A DNA stretch of 64,000 nt from Parcubacteria group bacterium GW2011_GWC2_48_17 (GCA_001003605.1 LCPL01000010.1:1528-65527); one strand, 5' to 3'. Positions 18,083-57,900 are shown, counted from the stretch's first letter. Numbers and translations: made by a program. The notes: generated by a model from the sequence alone, not told the origin.

Positions 18083-18215
18083 GTGACGGGATGATCCCGT
18101 TAGATGTCGCGGACGCTCGCGAATACATTACCTAGCATGGATAACGTATGTTTACCAATAATTACGGCGGGAGCCGCGGAAGACTTATCGTCCGCGTCCT
18201 ACCTCTAATGGGATG
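18083..18215 (+). promoter_or_regulatory. 5' leader element with terminal inverted repeats GATCCCGTTAGA ... TCTAATGGGATG; the right repeat contains the start codon
   Basis: Inverted repeats read directly; paralogous to 57755-57900. Confidence 0.5.
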
Positions 18216-18947
18216 AAAGGCGTCATATTAGCCGGTGGGGACGCGACACGACTTCGTCCGCTCACCCTCGTTACCAATAAGCACCTTCTGCCGGTATACA
18301 ATAAGCCGCTCATTTATTATGGGATAGAGCGATTGGTGGAGGCGGGTATAGACAGGATTATGGTGGTAACTTCACCGCGTCATGTAGAAAATTTCGTCGG
18401 ACTTCTCGGTTCCGGACAAAATTTCATTTCCCAAAAAGACGGCAAGCAAATACAAATTGTGTACGGCATCCAAAATGGTCCTTCCGGTATCGCCGACGGA
18501 CTTTATATCGCCAAGGATTATATCGGCGCCGATAATTGCGCGCTGTATCTCGGCGACAACATCATAGAAGACGATATCAGCGAACATATCGCGCGTTTCA
18601 AGAAAGGCGCGCTGGTTTTCCTGAAGGAAGTGAAAGACCCGCAGCGGTTCGGCGTGGCAGAGGTCGATGCTTCCGGCAAAGTACTAGGCATCGAGGAAAA
18701 GCCAAAGGAACCGAAATCGAACCTCGCTGTAGTCGGCCTCTATATCTACGATAACTCGGTGTTTAAGAAAATGGTCGGTCAGCCAATGTCGGAACGAGGC
18801 GAGTATGAGATTACGTATCTCAACAATAAATATATTGAAGAAGGAACTCTTCGCTCAGTGCATCTTGAAAAGGAATGGTTTGACGCGGGCACCGCGGACA
18901 GCCTGCTTGAAGCAGGGAATTTTATGGAGAAAAAGGCTCGTGGATAG
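18213..18947 (+). CDS. rfbA: sugar-1-phosphate nucleotidyltransferase (short-form RmlA-like glucose-1-phosphate thymidylyltransferase)
   Basis: MKGVILAGGDATRLRPLT N-terminus; adjacent to rfbB. Confidence 0.8.
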   Translation: MKGVILAGGDATRLRPLTLVTNKHLLPVYNKPLIYYGIERLVEAGIDRIMVVTSPRHVENFVGLLGSGQNFISQKDGKQIQIVYGIQNGPSGIADGLYIAKDYIGADNCALYLGDNIIEDDISEHIARFKKGALVFLKEVKDPQRFGVAEVDASGKVLGIEEKPKEPKSNLAVVGLYIYDNSVFKKMVGQPMSERGEYEITYLNNKYIEEGTLRSVHLEKEWFDAGTADSLLEAGNFMEKKARG

Positions 18948-18954
18948 CGTTATT

Positions 18955-20250
18955 ATGATTTCTGCGCGACAACATTCTGTGTCTATTTTTTTCCCATGCT
19001 ATAACGACAAGGGTACGATTGGCTCGCTCGTGCTTGAAGCGACGCGGGTGGCAAAGACGCTCACGGACGATTTTGAGGTCATCGTCATAGACGACGGCTC
19101 GCAGGACGGGAGCCGTGAACTCCTAATGGACATGAAGCTCAAGAACGAAATTTCGCAGTTCAAGCTTGTTATGCACGAGAAGAATCGCGGGTACGGCGCC
19201 GTACTTCAAACAGGATTCAAGACAGCAAGCAAAGAACTGGTTTTTTATACGGACGGCGACGGGCAATATGATGTACGGGAACTTCCGAGGCTGTGGAAGA
19301 AGATGACGCCAGATATGGATGTTGTGAACGGCTACAAGATAAAGCGGCATGACCCGTTTCACCGTATTATCATTGGGTATATCTATCAATACGCAATGAA
19401 ATTCGCGTTTGGACTCTCCATTAAGGATGTTGACTGCGATTTTAGGTTGATTCGACGGAAGGTATTTGATACGGTGGAACTTACGAGTACGACCGGGACT
19501 GTTACGATTGAACTCGTGAAGCGCGTCCAGCAGGCTGGATTTCGTTTTACCGAGGTCGGCGTTTCGCACCATTTCCGCACATACGGCACGTCGCAATTCT
19601 TCAGTTTTAAGAGAGTATTCAAGACTCTTTGGAAATTGATATTTCTCTGGACCGACCTTATTCTACTTCACGCGCTTGAGAAGCCGGCGGTTTCTATATT
19701 TCTTCGGAAGATTCTTGAGGGGAATTTCATACAGCAAAAGAAGATTATCCGCGAGCGATTTTTAACATCGGCTGGCGGAAAGGTTCTCGACCTCGGCTCT
19801 GGAACCGGAGAATTCTCACCGCTTTTTTCTAATGAAGGCTACTCTGGAATCGATATTGACCCAGCCAACATTGCATTCGCGAAGACGCACTATCCTGGAA
19901 AGGAGTTTAGGCAAGGAGACGCGCGAGAGCTTCCTTCCGCGGATGACGCGTTCGACAAGATTCTGGTCGTTGGAGTGTTGCATCACCTTAGCGACGATGA
20001 TTGCCGGAAGGCGCTTTCAGAAATGACGCGCGTACTGCGGAAACATGGTACGCTTCTTGTCATTGAAGACACGAAGTACCGAAGCATTGTGTCGAAGGTG
20101 CTTCGCGCCATTGACCGGGGAAATCATGTCCGCGGCTTTGAGGAATGGGAAGATATGCTTGGCGCATACTTTACGATACGGGACTCCTGTATGTTTCGAA
20201 CCGGTATTGGCTGTCCGTATTCCGCATTCGTACTTACTCGCAAAGATTAA
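18955..20250 (+). CDS. fusion of a GT2 glycosyltransferase with a class I SAM methyltransferase
   Basis: VSIFFPCYND...EVIVIDDGSQDGS (GT2) then KVLDLGSGTGEF...VVGVLHHLSDDD (MTase); the track ORF starts at 18805 inside the upstream gene, and the realistic ATG is at about 18955. Confidence 0.7.
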   Translation: MISARQHSVSIFFPCYNDKGTIGSLVLEATRVAKTLTDDFEVIVIDDGSQDGSRELLMDMKLKNEISQFKLVMHEKNRGYGAVLQTGFKTASKELVFYTDGDGQYDVRELPRLWKKMTPDMDVVNGYKIKRHDPFHRIIIGYIYQYAMKFAFGLSIKDVDCDFRLIRRKVFDTVELTSTTGTVTIELVKRVQQAGFRFTEVGVSHHFRTYGTSQFFSFKRVFKTLWKLIFLWTDLILLHALEKPAVSIFLRKILEGNFIQQKKIIRERFLTSAGGKVLDLGSGTGEFSPLFSNEGYSGIDIDPANIAFAKTHYPGKEFRQGDARELPSADDAFDKILVVGVLHHLSDDDCRKALSEMTRVLRKHGTLLVIEDTKYRSIVSKVLRAIDRGNHVRGFEEWEDMLGAYFTIRDSCMFRTGIGCPYSAFVLTRKD

Positions 20251-20251
20251 A

Positions 20252-21535
20252 ATGAAAAATCCACGAACAAAGAAACGTCTCATGGTAGAACACGATGTTT
20301 CGCCGGGAAAGCTTTCGCGCTGTCAGATTACCGGTTCAGCCAACCTCTTTGAGATTATAGATTTGGGACATCAGCCACCGTGCGATTCGCTTCTTTCGAA
20401 AGACAAACTTGACGCTCCCGAGACTCACTATCCACTTCGACTATTCCACTGTCCCGATTCGGGGCTTGCACAGCTCGATTATGTCATTGACGGCTCGGTG
20501 ATTTATTATCCTGAGTATCCCTATCGGAGCGGCATCTCAAAACCGCTTGAAGAATACCAGCGCGCGTTTGCGGGAGGCGTGGTGAAAAACCTCGGCATCC
20601 CCCGCGGGTCGCTTTCGGTTGATATCGGCTCGAATGACGGCACGCTCCTTACCGGATTTCGACGCGTGGGAATGAAGACGCTTGGTGTCGAGCCGACCAA
20701 TATCGCGAAGATTGCGAGGAAAGAAAATAACATAGACACCATCCAGAGTTTTTTTACGGAAGTGGTCGCGAAGGATATCGTAAAAGAATACGGACATGCA
20801 AAAGTGGCCACAATGACCAACGTATTCGCGCATATGGCGCCCTTAGGGGAAGTGATGCGCGGACTCGTGGCTCTTCTTTCGCGAGACGGCGTTTTCATCA
20901 CCGAGAGCCAGTACCTTCTCGATGTACTCGAAAAAAATCAGTTTGACGGTATCTATCACGAACATATCCGCACGTATAGTTTGAAGTCGCTCGTAACGCT
21001 CTTTCCCTACTACGGTATGGAAGTTTTTGACGTTGAGCGCGGAGATAGGTACGGCGGGAATATCCGCGCCTACATCGCGAGAAAAGGGGTGAGACCGATT
21101 TCAAAAAGGGTTCGGGAACTCTTGGCTCGCGAAGAGAAAGCAGGCCTCCATCGTCCCGAGACGTGGGCGAAATGGAAGAAACGCGTGGAAGAAAACCGCT
21201 TCCGTTTTATGGACTTCGCCTATGACGCGAAAAAGAAGGGAAAGCATCTTGTCGGCAATTCCTGTCCCGGGCGGGCGACGACGCTACTCAATTATTACGG
21301 CGTTGATACGGCGCTTATGCCCTACGTTGCCGAGCTTCCAAATGGACTGAAGGTGGGGAAGTACCTCCCCGGAAAGCACATTCCAGTCGTTTCGAACAAT
21401 ATTCTTTTCAAAGAGCAGCCCGATTACGTCGTACTTCTCGCGTGGCACTACAGCGATTTTATGATACAGGATTTGCGCGCGCGAGGTCTCAAGTCAAGAT
21501 TCATTATTCCATTACCAGAGTTTAAAGTTGTATGA
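20252..21535 (+). CDS. NDP-hexose C-methyltransferase family (TylCIII-like; Zn-binding N-domain, MTase, C-methyltransferase C-domain)
   Basis: CQITGSANLFEIIDLGHQPPCDSLL...LFHCPDSGLAQLD Zn-finger, VDIGSNDGTLL and C-terminal domain; paralog of 25380-26591. Confidence 0.75.
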   Translation: MKNPRTKKRLMVEHDVSPGKLSRCQITGSANLFEIIDLGHQPPCDSLLSKDKLDAPETHYPLRLFHCPDSGLAQLDYVIDGSVIYYPEYPYRSGISKPLEEYQRAFAGGVVKNLGIPRGSLSVDIGSNDGTLLTGFRRVGMKTLGVEPTNIAKIARKENNIDTIQSFFTEVVAKDIVKEYGHAKVATMTNVFAHMAPLGEVMRGLVALLSRDGVFITESQYLLDVLEKNQFDGIYHEHIRTYSLKSLVTLFPYYGMEVFDVERGDRYGGNIRAYIARKGVRPISKRVRELLAREEKAGLHRPETWAKWKKRVEENRFRFMDFAYDAKKKGKHLVGNSCPGRATTLLNYYGVDTALMPYVAELPNGLKVGKYLPGKHIPVVSNNILFKEQPDYVVLLAWHYSDFMIQDLRARGLKSRFIIPLPEFKVV

Positions 21536-22299
21536 TTGATACTATCAAGCACGTTATCTCCCGCGTGAAAGCGTATAAGAATTGGTACTCAATTGTCTGG
21601 CCGATGACGCGCCTACTTTCCCGGGAGAGGATTTTGGAAACGAGAGCCGGTCCCATGATGTACGTGAGGAATATCTTCGGGCCCGATTTTGTCGTGGTCC
21701 ACGAAATGTTCTTTCGGGACGATTACGGAGTACGAGAGCTTCATTTGAATGTGAGCGAGCCGGTGATTGTTGACGCCGGAGGGAATATCGGAGCATTCTC
21801 GCTCCTCGCGCTGGCGACCTATCCTAACGCCAGGATTCTTTGTTATGAGCCGGAAGCGTCAAATCTCGATATAATACGAAAAAATGTCAGACTTAACGCC
21901 GCTGAAAAGCACATTACCTGCTTCAAAGAGGCGATTGACAACACGACTGGCATGAAGACCTTTTATCTTTCGCAAGCGGAGTATGCCCACAGCCTGGAAA
22001 AATCAGCGGACTCTCGTCATGCCGGAGAGATAAGCGTTGCAACAACCACTATAGAGCGCATTATGCAGGATAACCATATCAAACGATTGGATTTGCTAAA
22101 GCTCGATATAGAGGGCACGGAATATTCAGTTTTGCGTAATTTGCCACTGGAGCTGTATCCTCGCATCAAAAATATCGTCTTGGAGATTCACGACCACCCT
22201 TCGGAGAAGAAAGAAGATTTAGTCAGGTTTCTGGCCGAGCATGGATACGCGGTCGCACAGTCAGGCACCAATCCCCATGTCTTTTTGGCGCAGCACTAA
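21532..22299 (+). CDS. FkbM family methyltransferase
   Basis: [14 protein letters not shown] motif, Methyltransf_21-like. Confidence 0.75.
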
Positions 22300-22310
22300 C
22301 ACGTACCGAC

Positions 22311-23411
22311 ATGATACCCTTCCTCAACCTCAAAAAAAATAACGAGAAGTATCGGGAAGAACTCATCGACGCGTTCACGTGCGTCATCGATTCGGGCAGG
22401 TATATTCTTGGCGAGGAGGTACGTGCGTTTGAATGGGAGTTCGGGACTTACTGCGGCGTGAAGCACGCCATCGGTACGGGTAACGGACTCGACGCTATCA
22501 CGCTCATCATCCGCGCCTATAAAGAGCTAGGTATTTTTAAGGAAGGAGATGAGATTTTGGTCCCCGCCAATACCTATATCGCCACGATTCTCTCCATCAC
22601 CGAAAATCGCTTAAAGCCCGTGCTAGTCGAGCCTGATATTCGCACCTACAATCTCGACGCTACACTTTTGGAGAAGAAGGTCACTTCTAAAACAAAAGCG
22701 ATACTCACTGTGCATCTTTACGGGAAAATCGGATATTCCGACGAAATGGGTGCAATTGCAAAAAAGCACGGACTAATGATTATTGAAGATAGCGCTCAAG
22801 CACACGGAGCGATTTACAAAGGAAGAAAGACCGGCTCACTTGGGGACGCATCTGGATTTAGTTTCTATCCGTCAAAGCCGCTCGGCGCGCTCGGAGATGC
22901 AGGCATCGTCACCACAAATGATTCAAAACTCGCAAAAGTTGTTGCCGCGCTCCGCAATTACGGAAGCCGCGAGAAATACCATAATCTCTCCCAAGGGGTA
23001 AACAGCCGACTTGATGAACTGCAGGCGGCATTGCTTCGTGTAAAGCTTCGGCATCTCGACGACGACAATCAAAAACGAAGAAAAATAGCGCAAAGATACT
23101 TACGAGAGATACGAAACAAAAAATTGATTTTGCCGGAAGAGGGCACACCCGAGAGACACGTGTGGCATCTTTTTGTCGTTCGGACAGAAAAACGCGACGC
23201 ACTGCAAAAACATCTTTCAAAAAATGGGATAGAAACTCTCATTCATTATCCCGTGCCGCCACACAAACAGCCGGCTTTCAAAGATTGGAACAAAAAGAGC
23301 TATCCCATTACCGAAGAAATCCACAACACGGTGCTCTCGTTGCCGCTCTACTCTGCGATGACGAAGGAAGAAATTTCCATCATAATTGAAGCGTGCAACA
23401 GTTTTTCGTAA
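22311..23411 (+). CDS. DegT/DnrJ/EryC1/StrS family PLP-dependent sugar aminotransferase
   Basis: Family-typical N-terminus, the [17 protein letters not shown]-lysine region and the [12 protein letters not shown] motif. Confidence 0.85.
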
Positions 23412-23466
23412 GCGTTGCGTTGTATCGATGCGGTGGAAATGAGTTTAGTTACTATAGGCACTACAT

Positions 23467-25266
23467 ATGCCCACGAAAGACTCCGTTATTTCCTTTCTCA
23501 AACGACACAAGTTCGCTTTCCTTTGCGCTCTGGTTGTCGGAGTTCTGTATGTTGCCCCGAACATTCTTTTCGTCATTTCGCTCGTGGAAGACTATCAAGG
23601 GATTCCCATGATGGAAACGCCGAACGAGGATTTCTATCTCGCGCGAGTGCAAGAGATTCTTGACGGACATCCATCGGTCGGCTCCGCGGCATATTGGGAA
23701 TACAAAGACGAGCCTCCCATTTCTCCTCCGACGGGGGAATTCCTCTACGCGCTTCCAACGCTTATCTTTGGCATCTCGCCAAGCACTACCCTTGTTGGAA
23801 GCAGGTTCGTTCTCCCAGCGCTCTTGTTTCTCCTCGTTTATTTTCTGGCGCGGCGTCTTACAGGCGATGATGATAGTATGGCAGGCAGAATCACGGCTCT
23901 TGCGAGCGCCCTATTTGTGACGCTCGGGTATGACCTCATTGACTATCGGAGTATCCTGCATTTTCTCGCGGGAGACGCTCCGCTCTCCAACGGATTTCTC
24001 ATTTGGGCGCGCCCCGTCAACCCGATTTTGGGGGCGATTTTTCTTTTTTCATTTTTGCTTTGTGTGCATTCGATTGTCGCGAAAAAAGAGCGCGTCGTCC
24101 GCTCTATGCTTGGCGCGTCAGTGTGCATGGCCCTCATGATAGCCAGCTATTTTTTCAGCTGGGGAGTGGCGCTTTCCGTTCTCGCCGTCTTGATTTTATT
24201 TCTTCTCATACGCAAAGAATTTTGTAGCGCTCGTTTACTCGCGCTTAGCGTGCCGCTCGGTCTCTTACTTTCGTTTCCGTACTGGCTTTCCGTATGGGGC
24301 GCGACAAAAAGCCCGTGGTATGCTTCATCGGTTTTGCGCGATGGGCTTTTCTATACTCATTATCCGCTCTTGAATAAGCTTCTTATCGCGACTCTTTTCT
24401 TTTCCTTGCTCTGCATAGTTGTGGACTATTTACGGAAACGAAAGAAGGGTGAGCCCTTTCAGTTTGAGTATTGGCATCTGTTTTGTTTTTCATTTCTGCT
24501 TGGAGGGTTATGGGCGTACAGCCAACAGATTCTCACGGGCCGCACTATCTGGCCGTACCATTTCGTTCAGTACACTATCCCGCTCGCCGGCATCACGGTT
24601 TTCACTGTATTGTTTCATCTGCGCAAGAATCTCTGGTATCTATGGCATATCGGTATCGCTATTGGCATATTTCTTTCCGTCATATATGGGGTGTATGTTC
24701 AAGCAAGCACCTTTTCTAGGTTTTATAGCTACGACAAAGAACGACAATCTGTTGCGCCATTTCTAGAGTGGTTGAACCAACGTGAACCCGATTGCGTCGT
24801 ACTTGTTGTGGAAGAGCCGCTTCGCTTAGGTCTCGAAGGTCTCATCCCAGCCTTTACGCACTGCAATACATACCATTCGCCGTGGGTGTTCTCGCTAATG
24901 CCGGATGACCGCATACTGCACAGCTACATTACGCGTCTCTACTTCAGAGGAATCTCTCCAGAATCGGTGGGAGAATATCTCAAAAAAGCGGATGAAGCGC
25001 ACGGATATCTATTCTCAAACTGGAAGGGGCTATACCGACTTCCGCAATTTCCCGATTTCTCCGACCCCATAGCCCTCGAGCGCGTACAAAAACTTCCGCA
25101 AGCCTACCGCGAATTTGTGTCGGAAGATATGTCAAAAATACTTCGGAAATATCGTCTCAATTATGTAGCTTCGGTTGGAGCTCTTGAACCGAAGATACTC
25201 AACGCGCTCCCTGGCACTACACTTATCACGGTCATTGGAGACGTACATCTCTACGCGTTTCGGTAA
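23467..25266 (+). CDS. large polytopic membrane protein, function unknown (paralog of 45565-47460)
   Basis: More than 12 hydrophobic segments; N-terminal loop EDFYLARVQEILDGH shared with the paralog (EDFYLSRGKEVLEGH). Confidence 0.55.
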   Translation: MPTKDSVISFLKRHKFAFLCALVVGVLYVAPNILFVISLVEDYQGIPMMETPNEDFYLARVQEILDGHPSVGSAAYWEYKDEPPISPPTGEFLYALPTLIFGISPSTTLVGSRFVLPALLFLLVYFLARRLTGDDDSMAGRITALASALFVTLGYDLIDYRSILHFLAGDAPLSNGFLIWARPVNPILGAIFLFSFLLCVHSIVAKKERVVRSMLGASVCMALMIASYFFSWGVALSVLAVLILFLLIRKEFCSARLLALSVPLGLLLSFPYWLSVWGATKSPWYASSVLRDGLFYTHYPLLNKLLIATLFFSLLCIVVDYLRKRKKGEPFQFEYWHLFCFSFLLGGLWAYSQQILTGRTIWPYHFVQYTIPLAGITVFTVLFHLRKNLWYLWHIGIAIGIFLSVIYGVYVQASTFSRFYSYDKERQSVAPFLEWLNQREPDCVVLVVEEPLRLGLEGLIPAFTHCNTYHSPWVFSLMPDDRILHSYITRLYFRGISPESVGEYLKKADEAHGYLFSNWKGLYRLPQFPDFSDPIALERVQKLPQAYREFVSEDMSKILRKYRLNYVASVGALEPKILNALPGTTLITVIGDVHLYAFR

Positions 25267-25379
25267 GAATGCAAGCTCTCGGATCCGCGAAAATCTTTCG
25301 CCAAAGACGGCTTGGAATCGCTGTCTATGCGAGAGGTGGCGTCCGTGGTAACATCCTGAATTATAGACGGTTTCGGCGT

Positions 25380-26591
25380 ATGTATTGTTTCATTTGCAAA
25401 AACAAACACTTGTTCAAGTTTCTTGATTTGGGCGACCAACCGCCGAGCGATGCTTTTTTGCGGAAAGAGGATTTAGAAAGACCGGAAGCGAAGTATCCTT
25501 TATCGCTCTATTTCTGCGAAGAGTGCACATTGGTTCAAATTGGGTTCGTCGTTGACCCGAAGATTTTGTTTCGGGACTATGTCTACACTACGGGGATGAA
25601 CAACAGCTTGCGCGCGAACTTCAAGGCGCTAGTTGAAACGCTCGTGTCTCGCTACGCGCTTACAAAGAGCGATTTCGTCATAGACATCGGCTCAAATGAC
25701 GGAACATTACTCGCCAATTACACGCCCCACGGAGTAAATGTCCTCGGCATCGACCCCTCGAGCGCGAGCACTCTCGCGAAAGATAAAGGCATTCCGACGG
25801 AAGTAGATTTTTTTAACGAGCGCACCGCTCTACGGGTAGAAAGAAAGTATGGCAAGGCAAAGGTGATTACCGCGACCAATGTGTTCGCGCATGTAAATGA
25901 TTTGGATTCATTCATGCGAGGCATTACGGCTGTGCTTCGCGAAGACGGCGTTTTCGTGTCGGAGTCGGGCTACCTTCTCGATATGGTTCTGACCCTCGGA
26001 TATGACGCGATTTACCACGAGCACCTCCGCTACTATTCTCTCCGGCCGCTTAAGGCGCTTTTCGAGCGATTCGGAATGGAGGTCTTTGATGTTGAGCGCA
26101 TACAAAGCCATAGCGGTTCAATCAGAGTATATGCCGCGTTTAATGGAGTGCATCCTACAAAGGCCTCTGTCGGCGAGCTTCTTGCTTTGGAGGAAAAAAA
26201 GGGATTGTATGCCCGTCAAACTTTTGTTGAGTTTGCTCGGCGCGTGTACGCGCACCGCGATGCGCTTACGGTGTTGCTTGCCGATGTAAAGAAATCCGGA
26301 AAGCGAATCGTCGGGATTGGAGCTCCGGCAAAAGGAAACACTCTGCTCAATTTCTGCGGTATCATTCCGGAAACTGTAAATTGCATCCTCGAAAAGAGCG
26401 CTCTTAAGATAGGCCTTTTTACTCCAGGGATGCACATTCCCGTCGTCGGTGAGGAACGTCTTTTTGCCGAACAGCCGGAGTACGCACTCATACTTGCGTG
26501 GAACATTGCTCCCGAACTCATGTCGAAGCTTAGGCAAAAAGGATTTAAAGGAAAGTTTATCATTCCATTTCCTAGAGTTAAGATTGTCTAA
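25380..26591 (+). CDS. NDP-hexose C-methyltransferase family, second paralog
   Basis: CFICKNKHLFKFLDLGDQPPSDAFL...LYFCEECTLVQ, IDIGSNDGTLL and C-terminal domain co-linear with 20252-21535. Confidence 0.75.
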   Translation: MYCFICKNKHLFKFLDLGDQPPSDAFLRKEDLERPEAKYPLSLYFCEECTLVQIGFVVDPKILFRDYVYTTGMNNSLRANFKALVETLVSRYALTKSDFVIDIGSNDGTLLANYTPHGVNVLGIDPSSASTLAKDKGIPTEVDFFNERTALRVERKYGKAKVITATNVFAHVNDLDSFMRGITAVLREDGVFVSESGYLLDMVLTLGYDAIYHEHLRYYSLRPLKALFERFGMEVFDVERIQSHSGSIRVYAAFNGVHPTKASVGELLALEEKKGLYARQTFVEFARRVYAHRDALTVLLADVKKSGKRIVGIGAPAKGNTLLNFCGIIPETVNCILEKSALKIGLFTPGMHIPVVGEERLFAEQPEYALILAWNIAPELMSKLRQKGFKGKFIIPFPRVKIV

Positions 26592-26668
26592 GTTCTTTCC
26601 TACTTGCTACCTTCTACCATCTACCTTCTACTTTCTAATTTCACTCTCTACTAACTACTTACTTCTTT

Positions 26669-27463: not shown

Positions 27464-27487
27464 CGCGGCAGGGGTTGTATTTGCACT

Positions 27488-28686: not shown

Positions 28687-28689
28687 CTT

Positions 28690-34177: not shown

Positions 34178-34219
34178 CCAAGGACTATCCTATGTGTATT
34201 CACATAGGATAGTCCTTGG
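34178..34219. promoter_or_regulatory. 19-bp perfect hairpin CCAAGGACTATCCTATGTG-TATT-CACATAGGATAGTCCTTGG in the divergent intergenic region
   Basis: Read directly; a second hairpin CCCTGCGC-TCCC-GCGCAGGG lies at about 34075-34094. Confidence 0.6.
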
Positions 34220-41889: not shown

Positions 41890-41920
41890 ATCTGTCAAAC
41901 GTCTTGTATTAAAAAAAGAT

Positions 41921-41948
41921 AGCCTGCTTCCGCGCGCGGAAGCAGGCT
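41921..41948. terminator. 28-nt perfect palindrome AGCCTGCTTCCGCGCGCGGAAGCAGGCT preceded by an A7 run, between convergent genes
   Basis: Read directly; it would be a bidirectional terminator. Confidence 0.6.
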
Positions 41949-41954
41949 ATTGCG

Positions 41955-43297: not shown

Positions 43298-43350
43298 TCT
43301 TTCCAAGAGTCAGACTCTTGGGACAGCCTTCCAAGAGTCTGACTCTTACC
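43298..43350. repeat. two tandem copies of the CCAAGAGTCWGACTCTT palindrome just upstream of the 43358 start
   Basis: Read directly. Confidence 0.65.
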
Positions 43351-49748: not shown

Positions 49749-49752
49749 CATT

Positions 49753-50694
49753 ATGACAAAAAAGACGCAGAAAGTATTTGTGACTGGCGCGGGCGGATTT
49801 CTTGGTTCGCACCTTTGCGACGCGTTCCTTCTGCAAGGTTACGCGGTTTTCGGAACCACTCATGAAGACGACTCGCGCGTCGCTCATCTTCGTGGCAACA
49901 AAGATTTTAAGGCAATTGAGCTTGATTTTACGAACGAGCGCGAGATGGCATACACTCTCGCCGATATTATGCCGGACGCCGTGGTACACGCGGGCGCCTT
50001 GAATCCCAAAGAGCCGATAGCATCGCCCACTCCCTACTTCGAAGCAAATGAGCGCGGGACACTTACGGTTCTCGAGGCGGCGCGAAAAGCAAAGGTGCGG
50101 AAATTCGTCTATATCTCGTCAATGAGCGTGTATGATAAAAATAAACTCACGCTTCCGGTTTCGGAGGAACACCCAGTTTCTCCAAATGATTTTTACAGCG
50201 CCAGCAAATACGCAGGCGAGATGTGGTCTTTGCTATACGGAGAAACTCTCGGCCTGCAGGTCGCCGTCCTCAGGTGTTCCGGCATCTACGGTCCTCGAAG
50301 ACACTTTGGCGCGGTGAACAATTTCGTCAAAAACGCGCTTGCTCATAAACCCCTCACGATTGATCGCGCTATGGGATGGGATTTGGTGAATGTAAAAGAT
50401 GTGGCAATGGCCGTGGTACAATCGCTTAACGTTCTTGGCCGTCGCACATTCGATGTCTTTAATATAGGGAGCGGGGTTCTGACAAACATAGAAGAACTTG
50501 CGCGGCTTATTATCCGCGAGACTAACTCACGCTCCATTATTGCATTTGGTCCGGACTTTAAGAAAAAAACGCCATTTAATTTCTATTTCAATATCAACAA
50601 GGCGCGCAAACTCCTCCGTTTTGAGCCGTCTACCTTACAAGATGGCATACGAGATTATGTTAAAAGCTTAAAAGTCGAGGCAAACTCTACATGA
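49753..50694 (+). CDS. NAD-dependent epimerase/dehydratase (SDR)
   Basis: VFVTGAGGFLGSHL and YSASKYAGE. Confidence 0.75.
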   Translation: MTKKTQKVFVTGAGGFLGSHLCDAFLLQGYAVFGTTHEDDSRVAHLRGNKDFKAIELDFTNEREMAYTLADIMPDAVVHAGALNPKEPIASPTPYFEANERGTLTVLEAARKAKVRKFVYISSMSVYDKNKLTLPVSEEHPVSPNDFYSASKYAGEMWSLLYGETLGLQVAVLRCSGIYGPRRHFGAVNNFVKNALAHKPLTIDRAMGWDLVNVKDVAMAVVQSLNVLGRRTFDVFNIGSGVLTNIEELARLIIRETNSRSIIAFGPDFKKKTPFNFYFNINKARKLLRFEPSTLQDGIRDYVKSLKVEANST

Positions 50695-51809
50695 AAATAC
50701 CAGGCGCAAAACCATATTGTCCTGATATACCGGGTCTTCTTGCAAAGATGAAGGCGGTACTAGAGAGCGGGCGGCTCATACTTGGGCCTCGGAACGAAGA
50801 ACTGGAAAAAGAATTTGCAAAATATATCGGCGTCAAATACGCCGTTGCCGTGGCGACCTGTTCTGCCGCTCTTGAAATTGTCATGCGCTACGCCAAGGTC
50901 GCGGGCGGGGAAGTCATCGTCCCCGCAAACACCTTTGTCGCGTGCGGCAATACGGTGCTCTACGCCGGCGCGACTCCCATTTTTGCCGAAACGGAAAAAG
51001 AAAGTTGTTGCCTCTCTCTGCAAGGAGTCACGCAAAAAATCACGCCGAAAACCAAAGCCGTTATGGCGGTACATCTTTCGGGTCTCCCAATGCCGGAAAT
51101 AAACGAGCTTCGCGCTCTTTGCCGAGCACAGCAATTATTTTTGATAGAGGACTGCTCTCACGCGCACGGCGCTACGACTCACGGGCAGAAAGTAGGAAGC
51201 ATTGGAGACGCGGGGTGTTTCAGTCTATTTGCCACAAAAATCATCACCTCCGGCGTTGGCGGCATTATTACCACGAACGACCCCGAACTTTTGCGTTTCG
51301 CGCGAAGTGTGCGGCATCAGGGAGAAGAGGGAGGGATCGAGAACATCGTCAATCTCGGCAACGATTGGCTGATGGACGAGATGCGCGCGACCTTCGCTCT
51401 CCATGAGCTAAACTTTCTTGAGGAAATTATCAAAGAAAGAAACAGCATAGCGGAGAAATATCGAGCGCGCATAGCGCGTATGCCGCACATCCTGTCAAAC
51501 GCCGTTCCAAGTAACATTAGGCACAGTTACTATAAGTTCTTGGCGACGCTTGACGAAACAGTGGATAAAGACAAACTCGTGCAGAGCATGAAAAAAGCGG
51601 GAATTGAGATGAACACGCTATACTCGAAGACCATTTATAATCATCAGGCGTATCAACAGATGGGCTTTTCCAGGAATCAATGTCCTGTTACGGAAGAAAT
51701 CATGAAGCACCAGATTGCCCTACCCATCTACTTTGGAATGACCGACGAGGAAATCACATACCTTATGGATACGCTCGAGGCGGGCATTTTGGAGCATACC
51801 AACGCATGA
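50691..51809 (+). CDS. DegT family sugar aminotransferase
   Basis: SLFATKIITSG (PLP-Lys) and NDWLMDEMRA. Confidence 0.85.
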   Translation: MKIPGAKPYCPDIPGLLAKMKAVLESGRLILGPRNEELEKEFAKYIGVKYAVAVATCSAALEIVMRYAKVAGGEVIVPANTFVACGNTVLYAGATPIFAETEKESCCLSLQGVTQKITPKTKAVMAVHLSGLPMPEINELRALCRAQQLFLIEDCSHAHGATTHGQKVGSIGDAGCFSLFATKIITSGVGGIITTNDPELLRFARSVRHQGEEGGIENIVNLGNDWLMDEMRATFALHELNFLEEIIKERNSIAEKYRARIARMPHILSNAVPSNIRHSYYKFLATLDETVDKDKLVQSMKKAGIEMNTLYSKTIYNHQAYQQMGFSRNQCPVTEEIMKHQIALPIYFGMTDEEITYLMDTLEAGILEHTNA

Positions 51810-52495
51810 GAGTGACTATACATCAGCCCGAATACCTTCCATACCTCGGTTTTTTTGACCGGCTTCTTCATGCCGACACTTTTGTACTTTTGGACACGGC
51901 GCAATTCCAGAGAGGCGGGTTCATCAATCGGAACAGAATCAAAACTCCGAAAGGCTCCCAATGGCTTACGGTCCCGATTGTAGGGAGAAAGAAGGATGTG
52001 AAGAAAAGCATACAGTCGGTTCGCATAGATAGCGAGAAGCCATGGCAGGAGGAGCACATACGGGCGATTGAATTAAACTATAAAAAAGCGCCCCACTTTC
52101 AAGAATTCTTTCCAGATTTGCGTGAGCTCCTTTTACGAAAGTGGGAGGGAATATCGGAGCTCGACAGCACTCTTATCGAATGGGTCGTTACTTTATTTGG
52201 ACTCAGCATACACATGGTACAGTCTTCTGCACTATCGATTACCGGCTCCGCAACAGACCAACTCGTGAGCATCTGCGCTGAACTTGGCGCCGATACCTAC
52301 GTCTCCGGGCCGGGGGGCAGAAACTATTTAGAGATGGATAAATTTTCAAGGGCCGGCATCAAGGTAGACTTCCACAATTTCGAGCATCCAATATATGAAC
52401 AGCGGTTCGGTGGAACATTTGAGCCCAACCTATCGGTTATAGACTATATCTTTAACTGTGGTCCGCGTTTACCCGCTAAAACAAAGAGTTCATGA
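51806..52495 (+). CDS. WbqC-like family protein
   Basis: MRVTIHQPEYLPYLGFFDRL...DTAQFQRGGFINRNRI matches the N-terminal pattern of the WbqC family; the realistic start is at 51806. Confidence 0.6.
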   Translation: MRVTIHQPEYLPYLGFFDRLLHADTFVLLDTAQFQRGGFINRNRIKTPKGSQWLTVPIVGRKKDVKKSIQSVRIDSEKPWQEEHIRAIELNYKKAPHFQEFFPDLRELLLRKWEGISELDSTLIEWVVTLFGLSIHMVQSSALSITGSATDQLVSICAELGADTYVSGPGGRNYLEMDKFSRAGIKVDFHNFEHPIYEQRFGGTFEPNLSVIDYIFNCGPRLPAKTKSS

Positions 52496-53151
52496 ATATT
52501 CTTGTTATTGCTCCGCATGGAGATGATGAAGTGCTCGGTGTGGGGGGCACTTTGGCAAAGCATGCGAGAGCGGGGGACACGCTCTTCCGCTCCATCATAA
52601 CCAAAACCTATCCGCCGGATTGGCCGGAGTCTTTTCAGAAAGAACGCGAAAAAGAAATCGCTCGCTCCGGAAAGATTCTTCATATTAAGAAGACTTTTTC
52701 ACTCGGCTTTCCAACCGTGAAGCTCGACACTATTCCGCAAAAGGAACTCAATGACCGTCTGTCCGAGATAGTAAAAGAAGTGAAGCCAGACATTGTATAC
52801 ACGCCGAGCGGAAAAGACTTGAACCGCGACCACCGTCTCGTTTTTGAAGCAACACTCGTCGCTACTCGTCCGGTTCCTGGAAGTTCGGTGCAAAAGCTCC
52901 TCTGCTACGAAGTCGTTTCGGAAACCGAGTGGGGGAGAAGTTTCGGCGTGTTTAGTCCCACCTATTATGTGCCGCTTACAAAGGATGACATTCGTTTGAA
53001 ATTAGACGCCATGAAGATGTATCAAAGCGAACTGCGGCAGTTTCCGCATCCGCGGTCTCTTGAGGTTCTTGAAATGCACGCGAAACTTCGCGGCTCTGAA
53101 ATTGGCTGTCAATTTGCGGAGGCGTTTGAGCTTATCCGCTTGATTGCGTAG
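52492..53151 (+). CDS. PIG-L/LmbE family deacetylase
   Basis: VIAPHGDDEVLGVGGT motif. Confidence 0.8.
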   Translation: MNILVIAPHGDDEVLGVGGTLAKHARAGDTLFRSIITKTYPPDWPESFQKEREKEIARSGKILHIKKTFSLGFPTVKLDTIPQKELNDRLSEIVKEVKPDIVYTPSGKDLNRDHRLVFEATLVATRPVPGSSVQKLLCYEVVSETEWGRSFGVFSPTYYVPLTKDDIRLKLDAMKMYQSELRQFPHPRSLEVLEMHAKLRGSEIGCQFAEAFELIRLIA

Positions 53152-53254
53152 CGGTGCCTTGATGCACTCCCAGACAAGGAAAGAGACCTCCTGTCTTGTT
53201 TTGTCGTTTAGCAAACAAATCAGCCATTACTGTAGTTATCTATATGGCTATACC

Positions 53255-53662
53255 ATGGCTCATAAACGCTTTAACAAGTGGGAAATGCCGCACATAGAGC
53301 ACGGTAAACCGACCAAATGGAATTGGTTGGTTTTGTATCCCGATGGCCTTACGCTTGGGAGTCATACCGATATCGGAGCGTACACTTTGCTCGTGGCAAA
53401 GCACGGTATAGAGATCGAGGATGAGGTGCAGATCGGTTCGCACTGCGCTATCTATTCGTACTCCACAATCGACGGTAAAGCGGGGAAGGTCGTATTAAAG
53501 AAAAATTGTCGCGTCGGGACGCACAGTTCAGTTATGCCCGGCGTGACAATCGGGGAGAATTCTATCGTAGGCGCTCACAGTTTCGTCATTAAGGACGTTC
53601 CACCAAACACTACAGTGGTGGGGGTGCCAGCGAAACCCATAAAGAAACTGAATAACTTATGA
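53255..53662 (+). CDS. hexapeptide-repeat (left-handed beta-helix) acetyltransferase
   Basis: Repeated [LIV]G..x.I hexapeptides and GAHSFVIKDV; the realistic start is at 53255. Confidence 0.7.
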   Translation: MAHKRFNKWEMPHIEHGKPTKWNWLVLYPDGLTLGSHTDIGAYTLLVAKHGIEIEDEVQIGSHCAIYSYSTIDGKAGKVVLKKNCRVGTHSSVMPGVTIGENSIVGAHSFVIKDVPPNTTVVGVPAKPIKKLNNL

Positions 53663-53726
53663 CGCATAACTGAATAACAGAGAAGTCTTTCAAGTTATTC
53701 AGTTATAGGTTATTCAGTGATACGTT

Positions 53727-54860
53727 ATGGTCATTATACATTACCCGCTCGCAAAACCGCACATCGGAAAAGAAGAGGAACGAGCGGTACTTAAAACGCT
53801 TCGCTCCGGCGTTCTTAGCATGGGTCCCGCCATAACGGAGTTTGAGAAGCGTTTTGCCAGATTTGTTGGAACAAAATACGCCGTGGCTGTTTCAAGCGGA
53901 ACGGCGGGCTTGCACCTTGCACTTATCGGCGCGGGCATCAAAGAGGGAGATGAGGTTATCACCTCGCCGTTTTCGTTTGTCGCCTCTGCGAACGCGATTT
54001 TGTATGTCGGAGCGACACCGGTATTTACAGATGTTGACCCGAATACCTTCAACATTGACCCTATGGGTATCGAAAAGAAAATCACTCCGCGAACGAAGGC
54101 TATCCTAGTCGTGCATATCTTCGGGCAATCGGCAGACATGAACCAAATTCTCGCGTTGGCAAGGAAGCACAAACTCAAAATCATTGAAGACGCGTGCGAA
54201 AGTTTAGGCGCGACTTATAAGGGCGGGGAAAACGGCATAGCGCGGATGGTGGGTACGTTTGGCGAGTCAGGAGTCTTCGCGTTTTATCCTAATAAACAAA
54301 TGACCACAGGAGAAGGCGGGATGATAGTGACGAATAGCAAGAAACTCTGTGCTCTCCTTCGGAGTCTCCGCAATCAAGGACGCGGAAAGAATATGCAATG
54401 GCTTTCACACGAGCGGCTGGGGTACAATTACCGGATGGATGAGATGAGCGCGGCGCTCGGTCTAGTCCAGCTCCGGAAAATCCGATTTCTTATACGCGAG
54501 CGTCAAAAAATAGCCGTCTGGTATCACCGTTTTCTATCGAAGCAGGCCTGCGGCATACAGCCGCTTAAGGTGGCAATTGGCAATACAAATACCTGGTTTG
54601 TCTATCCTGTACTCCTTCCTAGCGGCGTCAATAGAAATAGCGTAGTAGAGCGCATGGAAAAGCGCGGGATAAACACCAAGCCGTATCTTCCCTCCATCCA
54701 TCTATTCGGCTTTTATAAAAAGCGATTCGGTTTCAAGAAAGGGGATTTCCCGATATCCGAAGAAGTGAGCGAGCGCGTACTCGCGCTTCCGTTTTATATA
54801 GGACTTACTAAGAATGACATAGGACTTATCGTAGACGCGTTAACAGAGTCATTAGCCTAG
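53727..54860 (+). CDS. DegT family aminotransferase (PseC/PglE-like)
   Basis: AFYPNKQMTTGEGG (PLP-Lys) and GYNYRMDEMSAALG. Confidence 0.85.
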   Translation: MVIIHYPLAKPHIGKEEERAVLKTLRSGVLSMGPAITEFEKRFARFVGTKYAVAVSSGTAGLHLALIGAGIKEGDEVITSPFSFVASANAILYVGATPVFTDVDPNTFNIDPMGIEKKITPRTKAILVVHIFGQSADMNQILALARKHKLKIIEDACESLGATYKGGENGIARMVGTFGESGVFAFYPNKQMTTGEGGMIVTNSKKLCALLRSLRNQGRGKNMQWLSHERLGYNYRMDEMSAALGLVQLRKIRFLIRERQKIAVWYHRFLSKQACGIQPLKVAIGNTNTWFVYPVLLPSGVNRNSVVERMEKRGINTKPYLPSIHLFGFYKKRFGFKKGDFPISEEVSERVLALPFYIGLTKNDIGLIVDALTESLA

Positions 54861-54865
54861 TTTGT

Positions 54866-55900
54866 ATGCGGAATATATTTAAAGGGAAAACCATTTTAGT
54901 CACCGGCGGCACCGGTTCCATCGGTTCGGAAATAGTGCGTCAGCTACTTAGAATGAAGCCAAAATCCATTCGCGTCTTTGCGCGGCACGAAGACCGTCAT
55001 CACCAGCTGATGCAGGAACTCGCGAAGCATGCGGACACGGTACGCTTTGTTGTCGGCGACATACGAGACAAAGAACGGCTTATGCTTGCGATGGAGGGAG
55101 TGGATATCGTGTTCCACGCCGCGGCGCTAAAGCACGTGCCACTTTGCGAATACAATCCGTTTGAAGCGGTAAAGACCAACATAGTCGGCACGCAAAATGT
55201 GATTGAGGCGGCTCGCGCCGAGGGCGTCTCGCACGTCATCGGTATTTCCACCGATAAAGCCACTGAACCAGAGGGCGTACTCGGCGTTTCCAAACTCATG
55301 GCGGAGAAGTTGTTTCTATCAACCTATTTTTACAAAGGCAATACAAAAACAAAATTCACCTGCGTTCGTTTTGGCAATGTCTTGGGGAGCAGGGGGAGCA
55401 TCCTCTCTCTCATTAAGCGGCAAATCGCGCAGAATCAAAAAGTAACGGTCACCGACCCTAAAATGACACGCTTCCTTATGACGATTCCGCAAGCGGTATC
55501 GCTCCTCCTTGACACGGCCGCAAAAGGGAAAGGCCAGGAAATCTTTGTGTTAAAAATGCCATCCGTGCGTTTGGGCGATTTAATAGAAGAGGCCATCGGT
55601 TATTTCGCTCCGCTTTACGGAAAAAAGGCGTCGGAGGTCCGGACGGCTATCGTCGGTAAGCGAGACGGAGAGAAACTGCACGAGAAACTCCTCGCCGAAC
55701 ACGAAAGAGGGCTCGCGCTTGAAACCAAAGATTTGTACATTCTTACGCCACACAGAAGAGTGTCCGCGCTGTACAGGAAAATCTACAAGGCCAATCCTCT
55801 TCGTGCGGGCGACAAGAGCTTTTCTTCGGAGTACGCGCCGAAACTATCGCGAAAGGCATTACGCGCCCTTGTTTCAAGGGCCGCCAAGAGTTACTTGTAG
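54866..55900 (+). CDS. UDP-GlcNAc 4,6-dehydratase, polysaccharide biosynthesis protein CapD/PseB/PglF-like
   Basis: KTILVTGGTGSIGSEIVRQLL and FHAAALKHVPLCEYNP. Confidence 0.85.
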   Translation: MRNIFKGKTILVTGGTGSIGSEIVRQLLRMKPKSIRVFARHEDRHHQLMQELAKHADTVRFVVGDIRDKERLMLAMEGVDIVFHAAALKHVPLCEYNPFEAVKTNIVGTQNVIEAARAEGVSHVIGISTDKATEPEGVLGVSKLMAEKLFLSTYFYKGNTKTKFTCVRFGNVLGSRGSILSLIKRQIAQNQKVTVTDPKMTRFLMTIPQAVSLLLDTAAKGKGQEIFVLKMPSVRLGDLIEEAIGYFAPLYGKKASEVRTAIVGKRDGEKLHEKLLAEHERGLALETKDLYILTPHRRVSALYRKIYKANPLRAGDKSFSSEYAPKLSRKALRALVSRAAKSYL

Positions 55901-55952
55901 CGAAGATGGGGACTGCCGCCCGCTATTCGGGTGGGGAAAACGCGTAACCAAT

Positions 55953-57740
55953 ATGAGTTTTAACATCCTACGAAAAATCGGCAACCTGCTTTCCCTTTTT
56001 TACCGCACCTTTGGGGGGTACAAGTGGCACATCATGCTCATGGCGTTTTTGAGCTTTATTAGCGGCCTCTTAGAAGGCATCGGCGTCACGGCAATCATCC
56101 CTCTTTTTTCCGTCATCGGTGGCGGCGGAGGAGGACCCGAAGACAGCATCTCGCTTGCCATAGCGGCATTTTTTCGTTACCTCCATTTGCCGTTCACTCC
56201 CAAATTCCTCCTTTTCTTCATGGTCGCGCTTTTCTTTGCTAAGGCGCTCTTTTTGCTTCTTTCACAGCAGATTACTTCAAGGATTATGGCTGATTTCGAG
56301 AAGCGGATGAGAAGCAAACTGCTTTCTCTCACTTTTAACGCCAACTGGCCGTTTCTCTCTTCGCAAAGAGTCGGACACCTCGGACAGATGGTTATCACGG
56401 AGGTCTCCAACAGTTCCGCGATACTGTACTACTTAAGCAGCGCGATGCTCGTCTTGGCCAATCTGGTAATTTATACAGGATTGGTTTTTAATCTATCCGG
56501 AGTTGTGGCCGCGCTCGCGTTTCTTTCGGGGCTCGTCATCTTTTTCAGCTTTTTGCCCCTGCTTCGCACGACCAAAATCATCGCGGCCTCAATGGTTCGT
56601 CAGAACAAAAGAATCGCGCACTTCGCCGGCGAACATATTATCGGCGCCAAAACCCTAAAGTCCATGGCTCTTGAAGCGCCTGTGCTAAAAAGGGGAGACG
56701 GTCTGCTATCGACAATGAAGGCCCTTTATCTCCGGTCGTGCCTTTTAAAGAACATTACCGACGCTCTCCTACAACTCGTGGGAGTATTCTTTGTTGTCGG
56801 CCTATTCGCCTTTTTGTACAAGACGTCCGCGTTTGAATTCGCATCTTTCGCGGTGATGGTGTACGCACTCAACAAAATCATTACGAATGTCCAGTACACG
56901 CAGAATCACGCTCACGTTATCAGCGCTTCGATCCCGTATCTTGCGAGCATCGCGCGCTATGAAGATGAGGCAACGCAAAATCGGGAGGAAGACAGCGGCA
57001 TCGCTCCGTTTCGTCTTGAAAAGGAAATTGTTTTTAGGGACGTGGGTTTCGAGTATCGCTCCGATAAGCCATCCATTTCCCGCGTAAACCTATCAATCAA
57101 AAAAGGCGAGATGGTGGGACTCATCGGCCCATCAGGCGCCGGTAAGACGACGGTTGTTGACTTACTCCTGCGGCTTATCAAACCAAATACCGGAGCAATT
57201 ACTGTAGACGGCGTAGATATTTCCAGTGTGAATCTCGATGAATGGCGCTCTCAAATCGGATATATGTCGCAAGATGTCTTTCTGCTGAACGATACGATAG
57301 AAAATAACATCAGATTTTATTCCGCGGAAATAAGCGAGCAGGATATGATTCGCGCCGCGAAACTTGCGAATATCTATGATTTTGTGGTTAGCCAGCCGAA
57401 TGGATTTTCTACAGATGTGGGAGAAAGGGGGTTGTCGCTTTCGGTCGGACAACGCCAGAGAATCGCGCTCGCAAGAGTACTCGCGCGAAAGCCGCGCGTG
57501 CTTATTTTAGACGAAGCGACGAGCGCGCTTGATAATGAATCCGAAGCCCTTATACGAAAGTCCATGGAGGAACTGCGCAAGAAAATGACCATCATTGTAA
57601 TTGCCCACAAACTCTCGATCGTTTTGGGCGCCGACAGGCTCTTTATTCTTGATGGTGGTACTGTCGTCGAAGAAGGAAAACCGAGCGAACTGCTCAAAAA
57701 AGCAGATTCCCGCTTTTCCACGCTGCATGCTCGAAGTTAG
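55953..57740 (+). CDS. ABC exporter, fused permease plus ATPase (MsbA-like)
   Basis: 6-TM N-domain; Walker A GPSGAGKTT, ABC signature LSVGQRQRIA and Walker B ILDEATSALD. Confidence 0.85.
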   Translation: MSFNILRKIGNLLSLFYRTFGGYKWHIMLMAFLSFISGLLEGIGVTAIIPLFSVIGGGGGGPEDSISLAIAAFFRYLHLPFTPKFLLFFMVALFFAKALFLLLSQQITSRIMADFEKRMRSKLLSLTFNANWPFLSSQRVGHLGQMVITEVSNSSAILYYLSSAMLVLANLVIYTGLVFNLSGVVAALAFLSGLVIFFSFLPLLRTTKIIAASMVRQNKRIAHFAGEHIIGAKTLKSMALEAPVLKRGDGLLSTMKALYLRSCLLKNITDALLQLVGVFFVVGLFAFLYKTSAFEFASFAVMVYALNKIITNVQYTQNHAHVISASIPYLASIARYEDEATQNREEDSGIAPFRLEKEIVFRDVGFEYRSDKPSISRVNLSIKKGEMVGLIGPSGAGKTTVVDLLLRLIKPNTGAITVDGVDISSVNLDEWRSQIGYMSQDVFLLNDTIENNIRFYSAEISEQDMIRAAKLANIYDFVVSQPNGFSTDVGERGLSLSVGQRQRIALARVLARKPRVLILDEATSALDNESEALIRKSMEELRKKMTIIVIAHKLSIVLGADRLFILDGGTVVEEGKPSELLKKADSRFSTLHARS

Positions 57741-57754
57741 TAAAGCACAACCAC

Positions 57755-57900
57755 GATCCCGTTAGAGACCGCTTCGCAGTCTACGACTACTTCGCCACGG
57801 AAACGCACGATGAATAACCTTATGCACGCAGTATTAACAACTAGCATGTACAGAGAATCCTTCGCAAATAGGCGGAGCGTTTCCTGTCTCTAACGGGATG
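57755..57900 (+). promoter_or_regulatory. 5' leader element with 14-bp terminal inverted repeats ATCCCGTTAGAGAC / GTCTCTAACGGGAT, with the ATG embedded in the right arm
   Basis: Read directly; paralogous to 18083-18215. Confidence 0.55.

Follow-up and report, generated by a model that had tools for sequence, protein, structure and literature searches.

Start codons rebuilt by short inverted-repeat elements in Patescibacteria, and their probable derivation from a GIY-YIG nuclease mini-gene

Two short sequences bounded by terminal inverted repeats (TIRs) each end inside the start codon of the gene that follows them in a 64,000-nt stretch of DNA from Parcubacteria group bacterium GW2011_GWC2_48_17 (GCA_001003605.1 LCPL01000010.1:1528-65527; this whole stretch is termed the window below, and positions are counted from its first nucleotide). 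Both are very probably non-autonomous derivatives, devoid of an open reading frame (ORF) and comparable to MITEs (miniature inverted-repeat transposable elements), of a family of mobile mini-genes of about 280 bp present in Patescibacteria. The window copies are short, non-coding, bounded by TIRs and free of any ORF of the nuclease family that the long members encode, and the family to which they belong makes a target duplication of fixed length and occupies multiple non-homologous sites with insertion polymorphism.

Two elements in the window

The first element (locus 1; 18094..18214, + strand, 121 nt) overlaps the start of an RfbA-like NTP_transferase gene (18213..18947, +). Its left TIR, ATCCCGTTAGA (18094..18104, +), and its right TIR, TCTAATGGGAT (18204..18214, +), pair with one G·T position and have 99 nt between them, and the final two bases of the right arm are the AT of the host start codon (ATG at 18213-18215, followed by AAA). 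The second (locus 2; 57756..57899, +, 144 nt) overlaps the start of a gene for a Capsule_synth domain protein (57898..59352, +). Here the left arm is ATCCCGTTAGAGAC (57756..57769, +), which is ATCCCGTTAGA with a GAC extension, and the right arm is GTCTCTAACGGGAT (57886..57899, +), which is GTC followed by TCTAACGGGAT; the two form a perfect 14-nt pair with 116 nt in between, the right arm contains a TAA, and its AT forms the host ATG (57898-57900), again with AAA next. At both loci the ATG is rebuilt by the element and is the true start, orthologues that lack an element beginning at the same codon, with MKGVILAGG in the case of the rfbA-like gene and MKLFF(I/L).W in that of the capsule gene.

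The initial annotation of this DNA had described two leaders with terminal inverted repeats in which the start codon, with AAA next to it, is embedded, and both its sequences and its coordinates stand (ATCCCGTTAGA and TCTAAYGGGAT at both loci, with arms of 11-14 nt); initiation at a downstream ATG, which it had allowed for, is ruled against by the orthologue starts. The CTAGCATG and GAATA blocks that it reported as shared by the two interiors do exist, but their distances from the arms differ, they do not align, and the sharing appears to be coincidental. Both window copies lack an ORF and are therefore unable to make the nuclease; they are passengers in a polysaccharide operon. No nuclease gene of the family is present in the window, a weak match at 597-752 being a methyltransferase, and the frequency of the 11-mer there is mildly unusual only (4 matches with at most 1 mismatch against 1.09 expected, a figure reached by 3 of 100 shuffles).

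Extent of the family

The further copies that the annotation had called for exist in number. Short forms with the same arm arrangement (~120 nt) occur in at least 120 stretches of contigs taken at one genome per species, found with an exact-arm pattern and a 95-125-nt spacer, and long forms (~280 nt) in at least 120 stretches of metagenomes, found with exact arms and a 245-275-nt spacer; the counts of copies given here were taken among the matches listed in these two scans and are lower bounds. Where the titles of the listed short copies name a taxon it is almost always one of the Patescibacteria (Saccharibacteria, Parcubacteria, Kaiser-, Nomura-, Wolfe-, Yanofsky- and Zambryskibacteria, and others), and there are often several short copies on a contig, some of them in tandem. 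The window itself belongs to Candidatus Taylorbacteria, a protein of 100% identity being recorded under that name. Lengths are tight, 117-128 nt with a mode of 122 for the short form and 268-284 nt with modes of 279 and 282, and a peak at 276-284, for the long; there are two size classes only, with no non-ascertained copy between 140 and 266 nt. Neither size class has a match in 2.9 million viral contigs.

Literal sequence searches and topical searches of the literature found no prior description of the element. A 2024 study of insertions in rRNA genes of the candidate phyla radiation (CPR) noted GIY-YIG ORFs in non-intron insertions, without further analysis (PMC11270868), and such mentions of GIY-YIG proteins as the searches found in CPR papers are passing ones.

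Empty and occupied sites

Presence and absence at orthologous sites is evident for both window elements. Two orthologues of the rfbA-like gene (L127 and L130, with 86% and 79% amino acid identity) are empty, with 18-19-nt spacers and a plain ...ATGAAAGG, and a third (L128, 84%) has a different subfamily, with arms ATCCCGTAGTAGA..., at the same ATGA. Two orthologues of the capsule gene (L252 and L253) are likewise empty, and another (L251, 79%) has a further subtype with the ATGA repeat and a decayed left arm. Conversely, similar copies stand before different genes: in every one of the 61 pairs of short copies whose interiors are at least 72% identical, the genes that follow are non-homologous, and there are 20 pairs of homologous host genes with dissimilar elements. 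The host genes number dozens, are unrelated and include every functional class. One 98%-identical pair of short copies, 212 nt apart in one genome and in front of two adjacent genes (L046 6577-6910), points to recent local transposition. A small TIR-bounded mobile element that donates a start codon was the last of the possibilities raised in the annotation, and it was essentially right: the element is multi-copy, present or absent at a given gene, flanked by a 2-bp duplication, and the source of the ATG is the end of its TIR.

Six strain-level contigs that cover locus 1 do not differ from the window, with a single orientation in all 7 sequences, and are therefore uninformative about variation there. 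In L043 (5471-5712) perfect tandem short copies share one GA junction. In L251 (2434-2664) an unrelated insertion of ~230 bp, with inverted repeats of ~20 bp (AGAGCCTGTTCCGAATCTAA), lies just 5′ of the ATG of a cytidylyltransferase gene; the equivalent place in the window (59349) has no insertion.

Insertion into, and rebuilding of, the start codon

Among 121 short copies with enough flanking sequence, 115 have an ATG rebuilt on exactly one side, followed in 102 of these by an ORF of at least 100 codons, and overall about 90% of copies are at a host start codon. When copies are oriented by the gene, [AG]TG plus 0-2 nt is found directly to the left of the element in 110 of 123 (ATGA in 67, ATGG in 21), and the extra 0-2 nt are always repeated after the right-hand ATG. 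If the boundaries of the element are placed at ATCCC...GGGAT, a direct repeat of exactly 2 bp (GA, GG or their complements) flanks 101 of 131 short copies (77%) and 82 of 119 long ones (69%), where random re-pairing of the flanks gives an expectation of about 32 (about 25%); a repeat of 1 or 3 bp flanks about 14% of copies. Since GTG upstream copies pair with an ATG downstream, it is the element, and not the target, that supplies the right-hand AT. The joined-end palindrome is TCTAACGGGAT-GA-ATCCCGTTAGA, and TTTTTATGAAAGG is an example of an empty target.

At locus 1 the copy of the old host ATG at the left junction (18091..18093, +) starts an upstream ORF (uORF) of 14 codons with TAG as its stop. 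At locus 2 an ACG (57753..57755, +) stands where most copies keep the old ATG, and is probably a decayed copy of it. No uORF pattern emerges from the family, lengths from the old ATG being scattered over 6-43 codons with no conserved stop position, nor does in-frame read-through of short forms, the ATG-to-ATG distances having no preference for multiples of 3; as for an internal promoter, there are anecdotal −10-like strings only and no positional signal.

Most insertions are in tight operon junctions. A co-directional upstream ORF ends at most 20 nt from, or inside, the left arm in 56 of 123 copies, the ends including the TGA of an ATGA overlap and a TAG inside the left arm. Both orientations of the element occur at ATG sites, and about 5-8% of copies are at AT-rich sites without an ATG. 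In two contigs (L170 1014-1295 and L225 744-1025) long forms interrupt an ORF6N-domain gene at an internal ATGAA, with 10-31 codons left before its end; there is no upstream repeat, and the C-terminal tail of the host protein is still conserved between the contigs. Together with the non-ATG sites these internal insertions suggest that the enrichment at start codons reflects a sequence preference for ATGRA plus selection. One full-length copy (L055 3866-4170) has variant ends, ACCCCGTTAGA and TCTAACGGGGT, would rebuild a GTG rather than an ATG, and abuts a solo left end.

The long form and its nuclease

An 84-aa ORF lies between the arms of both a variant copy (L055) and a truncated copy (L010), and 76 of the 120 long forms have an intact ORF of 84-89 aa. 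Its consensus is MxYTYVLxS.K....YTGxTxDLRKRFxQHNxGK.S..TKxRGPFxLIYYEACLNExDARSREKYLKSGMGKRYLKNRLKRFLSLTG, which matches the Pfam GIY-YIG domain (PF01541) with an E value of 8e-20. In the 76 intact long forms, as distinct from the window copies, conservation in the catalytic columns (Y, Y, R, H, E and N) is 93% or higher. The whole protein equals the catalytic domain, with no separate DNA-binding domain, and its nearest solved relatives are the UPF0213 protein BH0048 and an SLX1 homologue. Proteins of the family form at least 5968 clusters at 90% identity, whose annotation goes no further than 'GIY-YIG nuclease family protein' or 'putative endonuclease'.

The nuclease ORF is the only one found between the repeats, and its C-terminal codons and stop are built into the right repeat. 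The last codons are the right arm, AAG CGT TTC CTA TCT CTA ACG GGA TGA being read as K R F L S L T G stop, and the TGA at this LSLTG* end is that of GGGATGA, so that it and the host ATG, as rebuilt, overlap. In a frame variant the protein ends ...GASYL, with the TAA of the right arm as its stop. Read in its three frames the right arm offers a TAA, a TGA and an ATG, and ribosomes that reach it, whatever their frame, therefore either stop at the host start or run on into it. Of the 76 intact long forms, 70 have the ORF in the same direction as the host gene. The old host ATG is in frame with the nuclease ORF in 35 of the 54 copies that keep that ATG, and in 23 of the 35 the frame is open; in public annotation there are gene products of 95 aa that begin MNPVRD, the translation of the left arm.

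Probable derivation of the short form

The ends of long and short forms are identical. Against a DNA profile of the long form, the match of short forms is confined to positions 1-17 and about 247-281, and in a few it extends colinearly on the left to about position 100. What links the two classes further is a second pairing, here called helix 2. In long forms the R-K-R-F/L codons of the nuclease (GGAA[AG]CG[CT]TT...) pair with the ...L-K-R-F-L codons (...AAGCGTTTCC) of the same element over 10-15 bp, with a mean of 11.6 bp within an element and 6.7 bp between elements, and many columns have double compensatory changes. Removal of the ~150 nt that helix 2 encloses yields the subterminal hairpin of short forms, e.g. 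CGGAAGCGC|AAGCGCTTCC. At locus 2, the subtype in which helix 2 encloses a 70-nt remnant, its 5′ strand GGAAACGC (57799..57806, +) corresponds to the nuclease R-K-R codons of long forms and its 3′ strand GCGTTTCC (57877..57884, +) to the C-terminal K-R-F-L codons. Locus 1 is of a subtype with GC blocks at both ends: the left block, CGCGGACGC (18108..18116, +), and a part of the right subterminal one, GTCCGCGTCC-T-ACC (18190..18203, +), are complementary and lengthen the terminal stem, and the (T/A)CCT-RYY motif before the arm encodes the C-terminus of the nuclease in the long form.

In short forms the hairpins are by now remote from the coding sequence, with their pairing kept; this divergence, and the near-identical short copies at unrelated genes, argue that short forms propagate as such. 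Their interiors are otherwise AT-rich, unconserved and unalignable.

The covariation that the annotation had asked after is present, pairing being kept by compensatory changes. The extension of the arms (RRY/RYY) forms Watson-Crick pairs in 92-97% of copies, each column being divided ~50:50 between two alternative pairs. On the sense strand G·U against A·C counts are 16 against 29 for helix 2, 10 against 11 for the arm extension and 8 against 4 for the short hairpins. The lack of a G·U bias on the mRNA strand argues that the inverted repeats matter as DNA (as paired ends, as a cruciform or in single strands) and not as a selected mRNA fold.

A proposed mechanism

The full element has terminal inverted repeats of 11-14 bp (ATCCCGTTAGA-RRY and RYY-TCTAACGGGAT) and codes only for a stand-alone UPF0213/Slx1-like GIY-YIG nuclease. 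It inserts at AT|GR|A, almost always in a host start codon, with a 2-bp duplication. As the old ATG is kept on the left and the AT of the right repeat with the duplicated G rebuilds an ATG, the host ORF is left untouched. In the mechanism that we propose, the nuclease would cut with a 2-nt stagger both at the folded or paired ends of the element and at AT-NN-A targets that resemble the joined ends (...GAT-NN-ATC...); a stagger of this length is typical of GIY-YIG enzymes and is established for I-TevI and Eco29kI. Short forms would be mobilised in trans. The element would borrow the initiation site of the host gene and hand the ribosomes back by termination and reinitiation. Short forms would arise by the loss of ~150 nt inside helix 2, by which the R-K-R codons would be brought beside the C-terminal K-R-F-L codons, and a subterminal hairpin or GC block would remain. 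Taken together these mechanistic steps have, in our estimation, not quite an even chance of being correct. A little less firm still is the suggestion that the ~280-bp form represents an unrecognised class of autonomous bacterial transposon, among the smallest known, whose sole protein is an 86-aa nuclease recognising its own ends, and which is a Patescibacteria-wide translational parasite of start codons (MNPVRD-prefixed, with ATGA overlap) with MITE-like offspring.

Several points weigh against this scheme. We know of no experiment on, or precedent for, a stand-alone GIY-YIG domain transposing DNA, and the role of the nuclease may be that of cargo, or be restricted to homing or repair. The upstream copy of the ATG is absent in 22 of the 76 intact long forms and the flanking repeat is absent in 9-17% of copies, and the enrichment at start codons could be due to targeting or to selection. 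The homology of short to long forms rests on the ends of their DNA and, for a few copies, on the ~100 nt at the left: remnants of the nuclease at the protein level in short forms are not significant, the best having an E value of 0.12 and the second-best, a weak match of 57851-57898 at locus 2 to the nuclease tail, one of 0.16, and the sample contains no long counterpart with the GC blocks of locus 1 at both ends. Because both scans required exact arms, arm conservation is in part a matter of ascertainment, and the data are metagenome-assembled genomes, metagenome contigs and other contigs rather than finished genomes.

Alternative explanations

Of the alternatives, the one that survives best, though we consider it unlikely, is that the short forms are ordinary MITEs moved by a DDE-type transposase, the GIY-YIG ORF being cargo or having a stabilising or addiction function. 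TIRs with a fixed short target duplication, here of 2 bp, are the classic signature of DDE transposition, the short forms move without coding capacity, and a transposon with a GIY-YIG protein only was not found in the literature searched, nor is one known to us. Against this, a search for a parent insertion sequence, in which arms like these would lie 0.3-3 kb apart, found none, and no pair of arms at insertion-sequence distances is present in about 0.95 Mb around short copies and 0.78 Mb around long ones. The nuclease is, moreover, the only ORF between the repeats, with its C-terminal codons and stop in the right repeat; its catalytic residues are conserved; and helix 2 ties the sequence of the ORF to the structure of the element.

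Still less probable is that the sequences are dedicated cis-regulatory RNA leaders in which a stem masking the AUG and GGGA is the selected function. Long-range pairing over the start codon, as the annotation had proposed, is indeed predicted, the terminal stem being closed across the AUG in both folds (z-scores −2.8 at locus 1 and −4.2 at locus 2); arm extension, hairpin and helix 2 are all kept by compensatory changes; and the polarity of the element with respect to the host gene is uneven, with 58 hairpins proximal and 6 distal. The specific proposals of a thermosensor, a riboswitch-like or a small RNA-targeted leader nevertheless lack support. The host genes are unrelated in function, sites in orthologues are either empty or occupied by other subfamilies, and the interiors are AT-rich and unconserved; there is no overlap with Rfam families, either at the gathering threshold (the window and 18 loci) or at an E-value threshold (locus 1). 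The copies are nuclease-derived, their conserved right end being the coding 3′ end of the nuclease gene, and there is no G·U excess on the mRNA strand. The stems of the window copies, as modelled, may possibly have some effect on translation of the rfbA-like or the capsule gene.

A very improbable alternative is that the element is removed or bypassed at expression, by intron-like excision, by RNase III processing to a near-leaderless mRNA, or by ribosomes hopping from the old AUG to the rebuilt one. A matched AUG(R)A is at both feet of a flush stem of 11-14 bp, as with the take-off and landing pairs of programmed bypassing, and the CPR rRNA genes mentioned above carry non-intron insertions that encode GIY-YIG proteins (PMC11270868). 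The duplication is, however, explained by the 2-bp target repeat and the AT of the TIR; GTG upstream copies pair with ATG downstream; and 9-29% of copies have no upstream copy at all. A bulge-helix-bulge geometry is not possible because the flanks are not complementary, and there is neither a conserved core of ribozyme size nor a G·U bias. A bulge-helix-bulge intron, considered by itself, fails on its defining features.

An invertible, phase-variable promoter segment before surface-polysaccharide genes can be dismissed almost completely: inverted repeats do flank an AT-rich segment of ~100 bp in a glycan locus and both interior polarities occur relative to host genes, but the polarity is skewed about 9:1, the host genes are of every functional class, the same gene is empty in relatives, the 2-bp direct repeat and the old start codon at the flanks are left unexplained by inversion, and the window and six strain contigs of locus 1 have one orientation. 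Elements of the IS200/IS605 type or repetitive extragenic palindromes with their associated transposases (REP/RAYT) were rejected on the perfect inverted repeats, the 2-bp duplication and the occurrence of both orientations at ATG sites, and integron attC sites on the order of R″ and R′, which is reversed on both strands.

Relation to known systems

Short forms resemble MITEs and the long form a free-standing GIY-YIG homing gene, and the chance that this is a new class of transposon driven by a nuclease is substantial. Closest in appearance to the short forms are the Correia elements of Neisseria (Neisseria miniature insertion sequences, NEMIS) and the repeat unit of pneumococcus (RUP), which are similarly of 100-150 bp with TIRs and a 2-bp target duplication, are present in many copies without coding capacity, are co-transcribed with their neighbours, and have ends that form a signal together with target bases. 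The signal rebuilt here is by contrast a start codon, with insertion at ATG in about 90% of cases; the autonomous relative encodes a GIY-YIG nuclease instead of a DDE transposase; and the family spans a superphylum with identical 11-nt ends.

Free-standing GIY-YIG homing genes (phage T4 seg genes and those of the I-TevI type) are likewise selfish ORFs wedged between host genes, co-oriented with them and dependent on host expression, and the established 2-nt stagger typical of GIY-YIG nucleases matches the 2-bp repeat of the element. They differ in that the protein of the element is a catalytic domain of ~86 aa only, and that the element has inverted repeats and a duplication, is found at many unrelated genes with no single cognate site (similar copies are never at homologous genes), and spawns ORF-less derivatives that still move. 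UPF0213/YhbQ and Slx1, the closest solved relatives in sequence, have their single-domain architecture and motifs in common with the element nuclease; they are regarded as host repair or resolution factors, and to our knowledge none is repeat-bounded, multi-copy or mobile.

The strategy of a selfish insertion that spares its host gene is also that of IStrons and Rickettsia palindromic elements, the means being self-splicing for the former, in-frame translation for the latter, and, for the present element, rebuilding of the start codon with what would be stop/start coupling. Integron attC sites are similar in their intergenic position, size (60-140 bp), GTTRRRY and RYYYAAC-like cores and variable structured centre; the element differs in having GTTAGA 5′ and TCTAAC 3′ (the reverse), in lacking an integrase context, and in its 2-bp duplication and the nuclease gene within it.

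Should the nuclease prove to be what moves the element, a GIY-YIG-based element bounded by inverted repeats would join the kinds of prokaryotic transposon, and the lower size limit for an autonomous mobile element would become about 280 bp. The family explains thousands of annotations of small CPR proteins as GIY-YIG or 'putative endonuclease', and many odd intergenic leaders of ~120 nt. It also poses a pitfall for gene calling, start codons being duplicated and the nuclease being called from the old ATG of its host. It offers a natural experiment on translation initiation and coupling in Patescibacteria, which are only now becoming genetically tractable, and the strict habit of inserting at an ATG and rebuilding it may be exploitable as a tool.

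Other features of the window and of related sequences

Directly before the left arm of locus 1 is TGTGACGGGAT (18082..18092, +), followed by a G that abuts the arm, and it resembles a degenerate right end. In L128 the subfamily at this site has a comparable end, ...CACTACGGGAT, and the window sequence suggests the decayed right end of an earlier element, with nested or tandem insertion and then decay. That subfamily belongs to a second arm family, ATCCCGTAGTAGA.../...CTACGGGAT, of which there are examples in L128 (1313-1500), in the right flank of L009 5897-6019 and in L097 (around 3249-3383); it has ATGA flanks like those of the window elements, and only an ATCCCGT/ACGGGAT core in common with them. 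A more distant GIY-YIG ORF, in L009 (2150-2560), is flanked by direct repeats of ~50 bp (ATATATTCCGCAGTAGCTCTCCGCCAGCTGGCGGAGG...) and not by inverted repeats.

Downstream of locus 1, mechanically listed ORFs overlap by 140-200 nt at 18805-18947 and 20045-20250. As gene calls for an identical contig (L121) start the downstream genes later, at the equivalents of about 18955 and about 20282, these overlaps are artefacts of ORF listing. Elsewhere in the window, intergenic spacers of the glycan locus contain perfect palindromes or hairpins of 16-19 bp (34178-34219, 10817-10850, 41919-41950 and 43305-43347), which have no relation in sequence to the element and probably serve as terminators.

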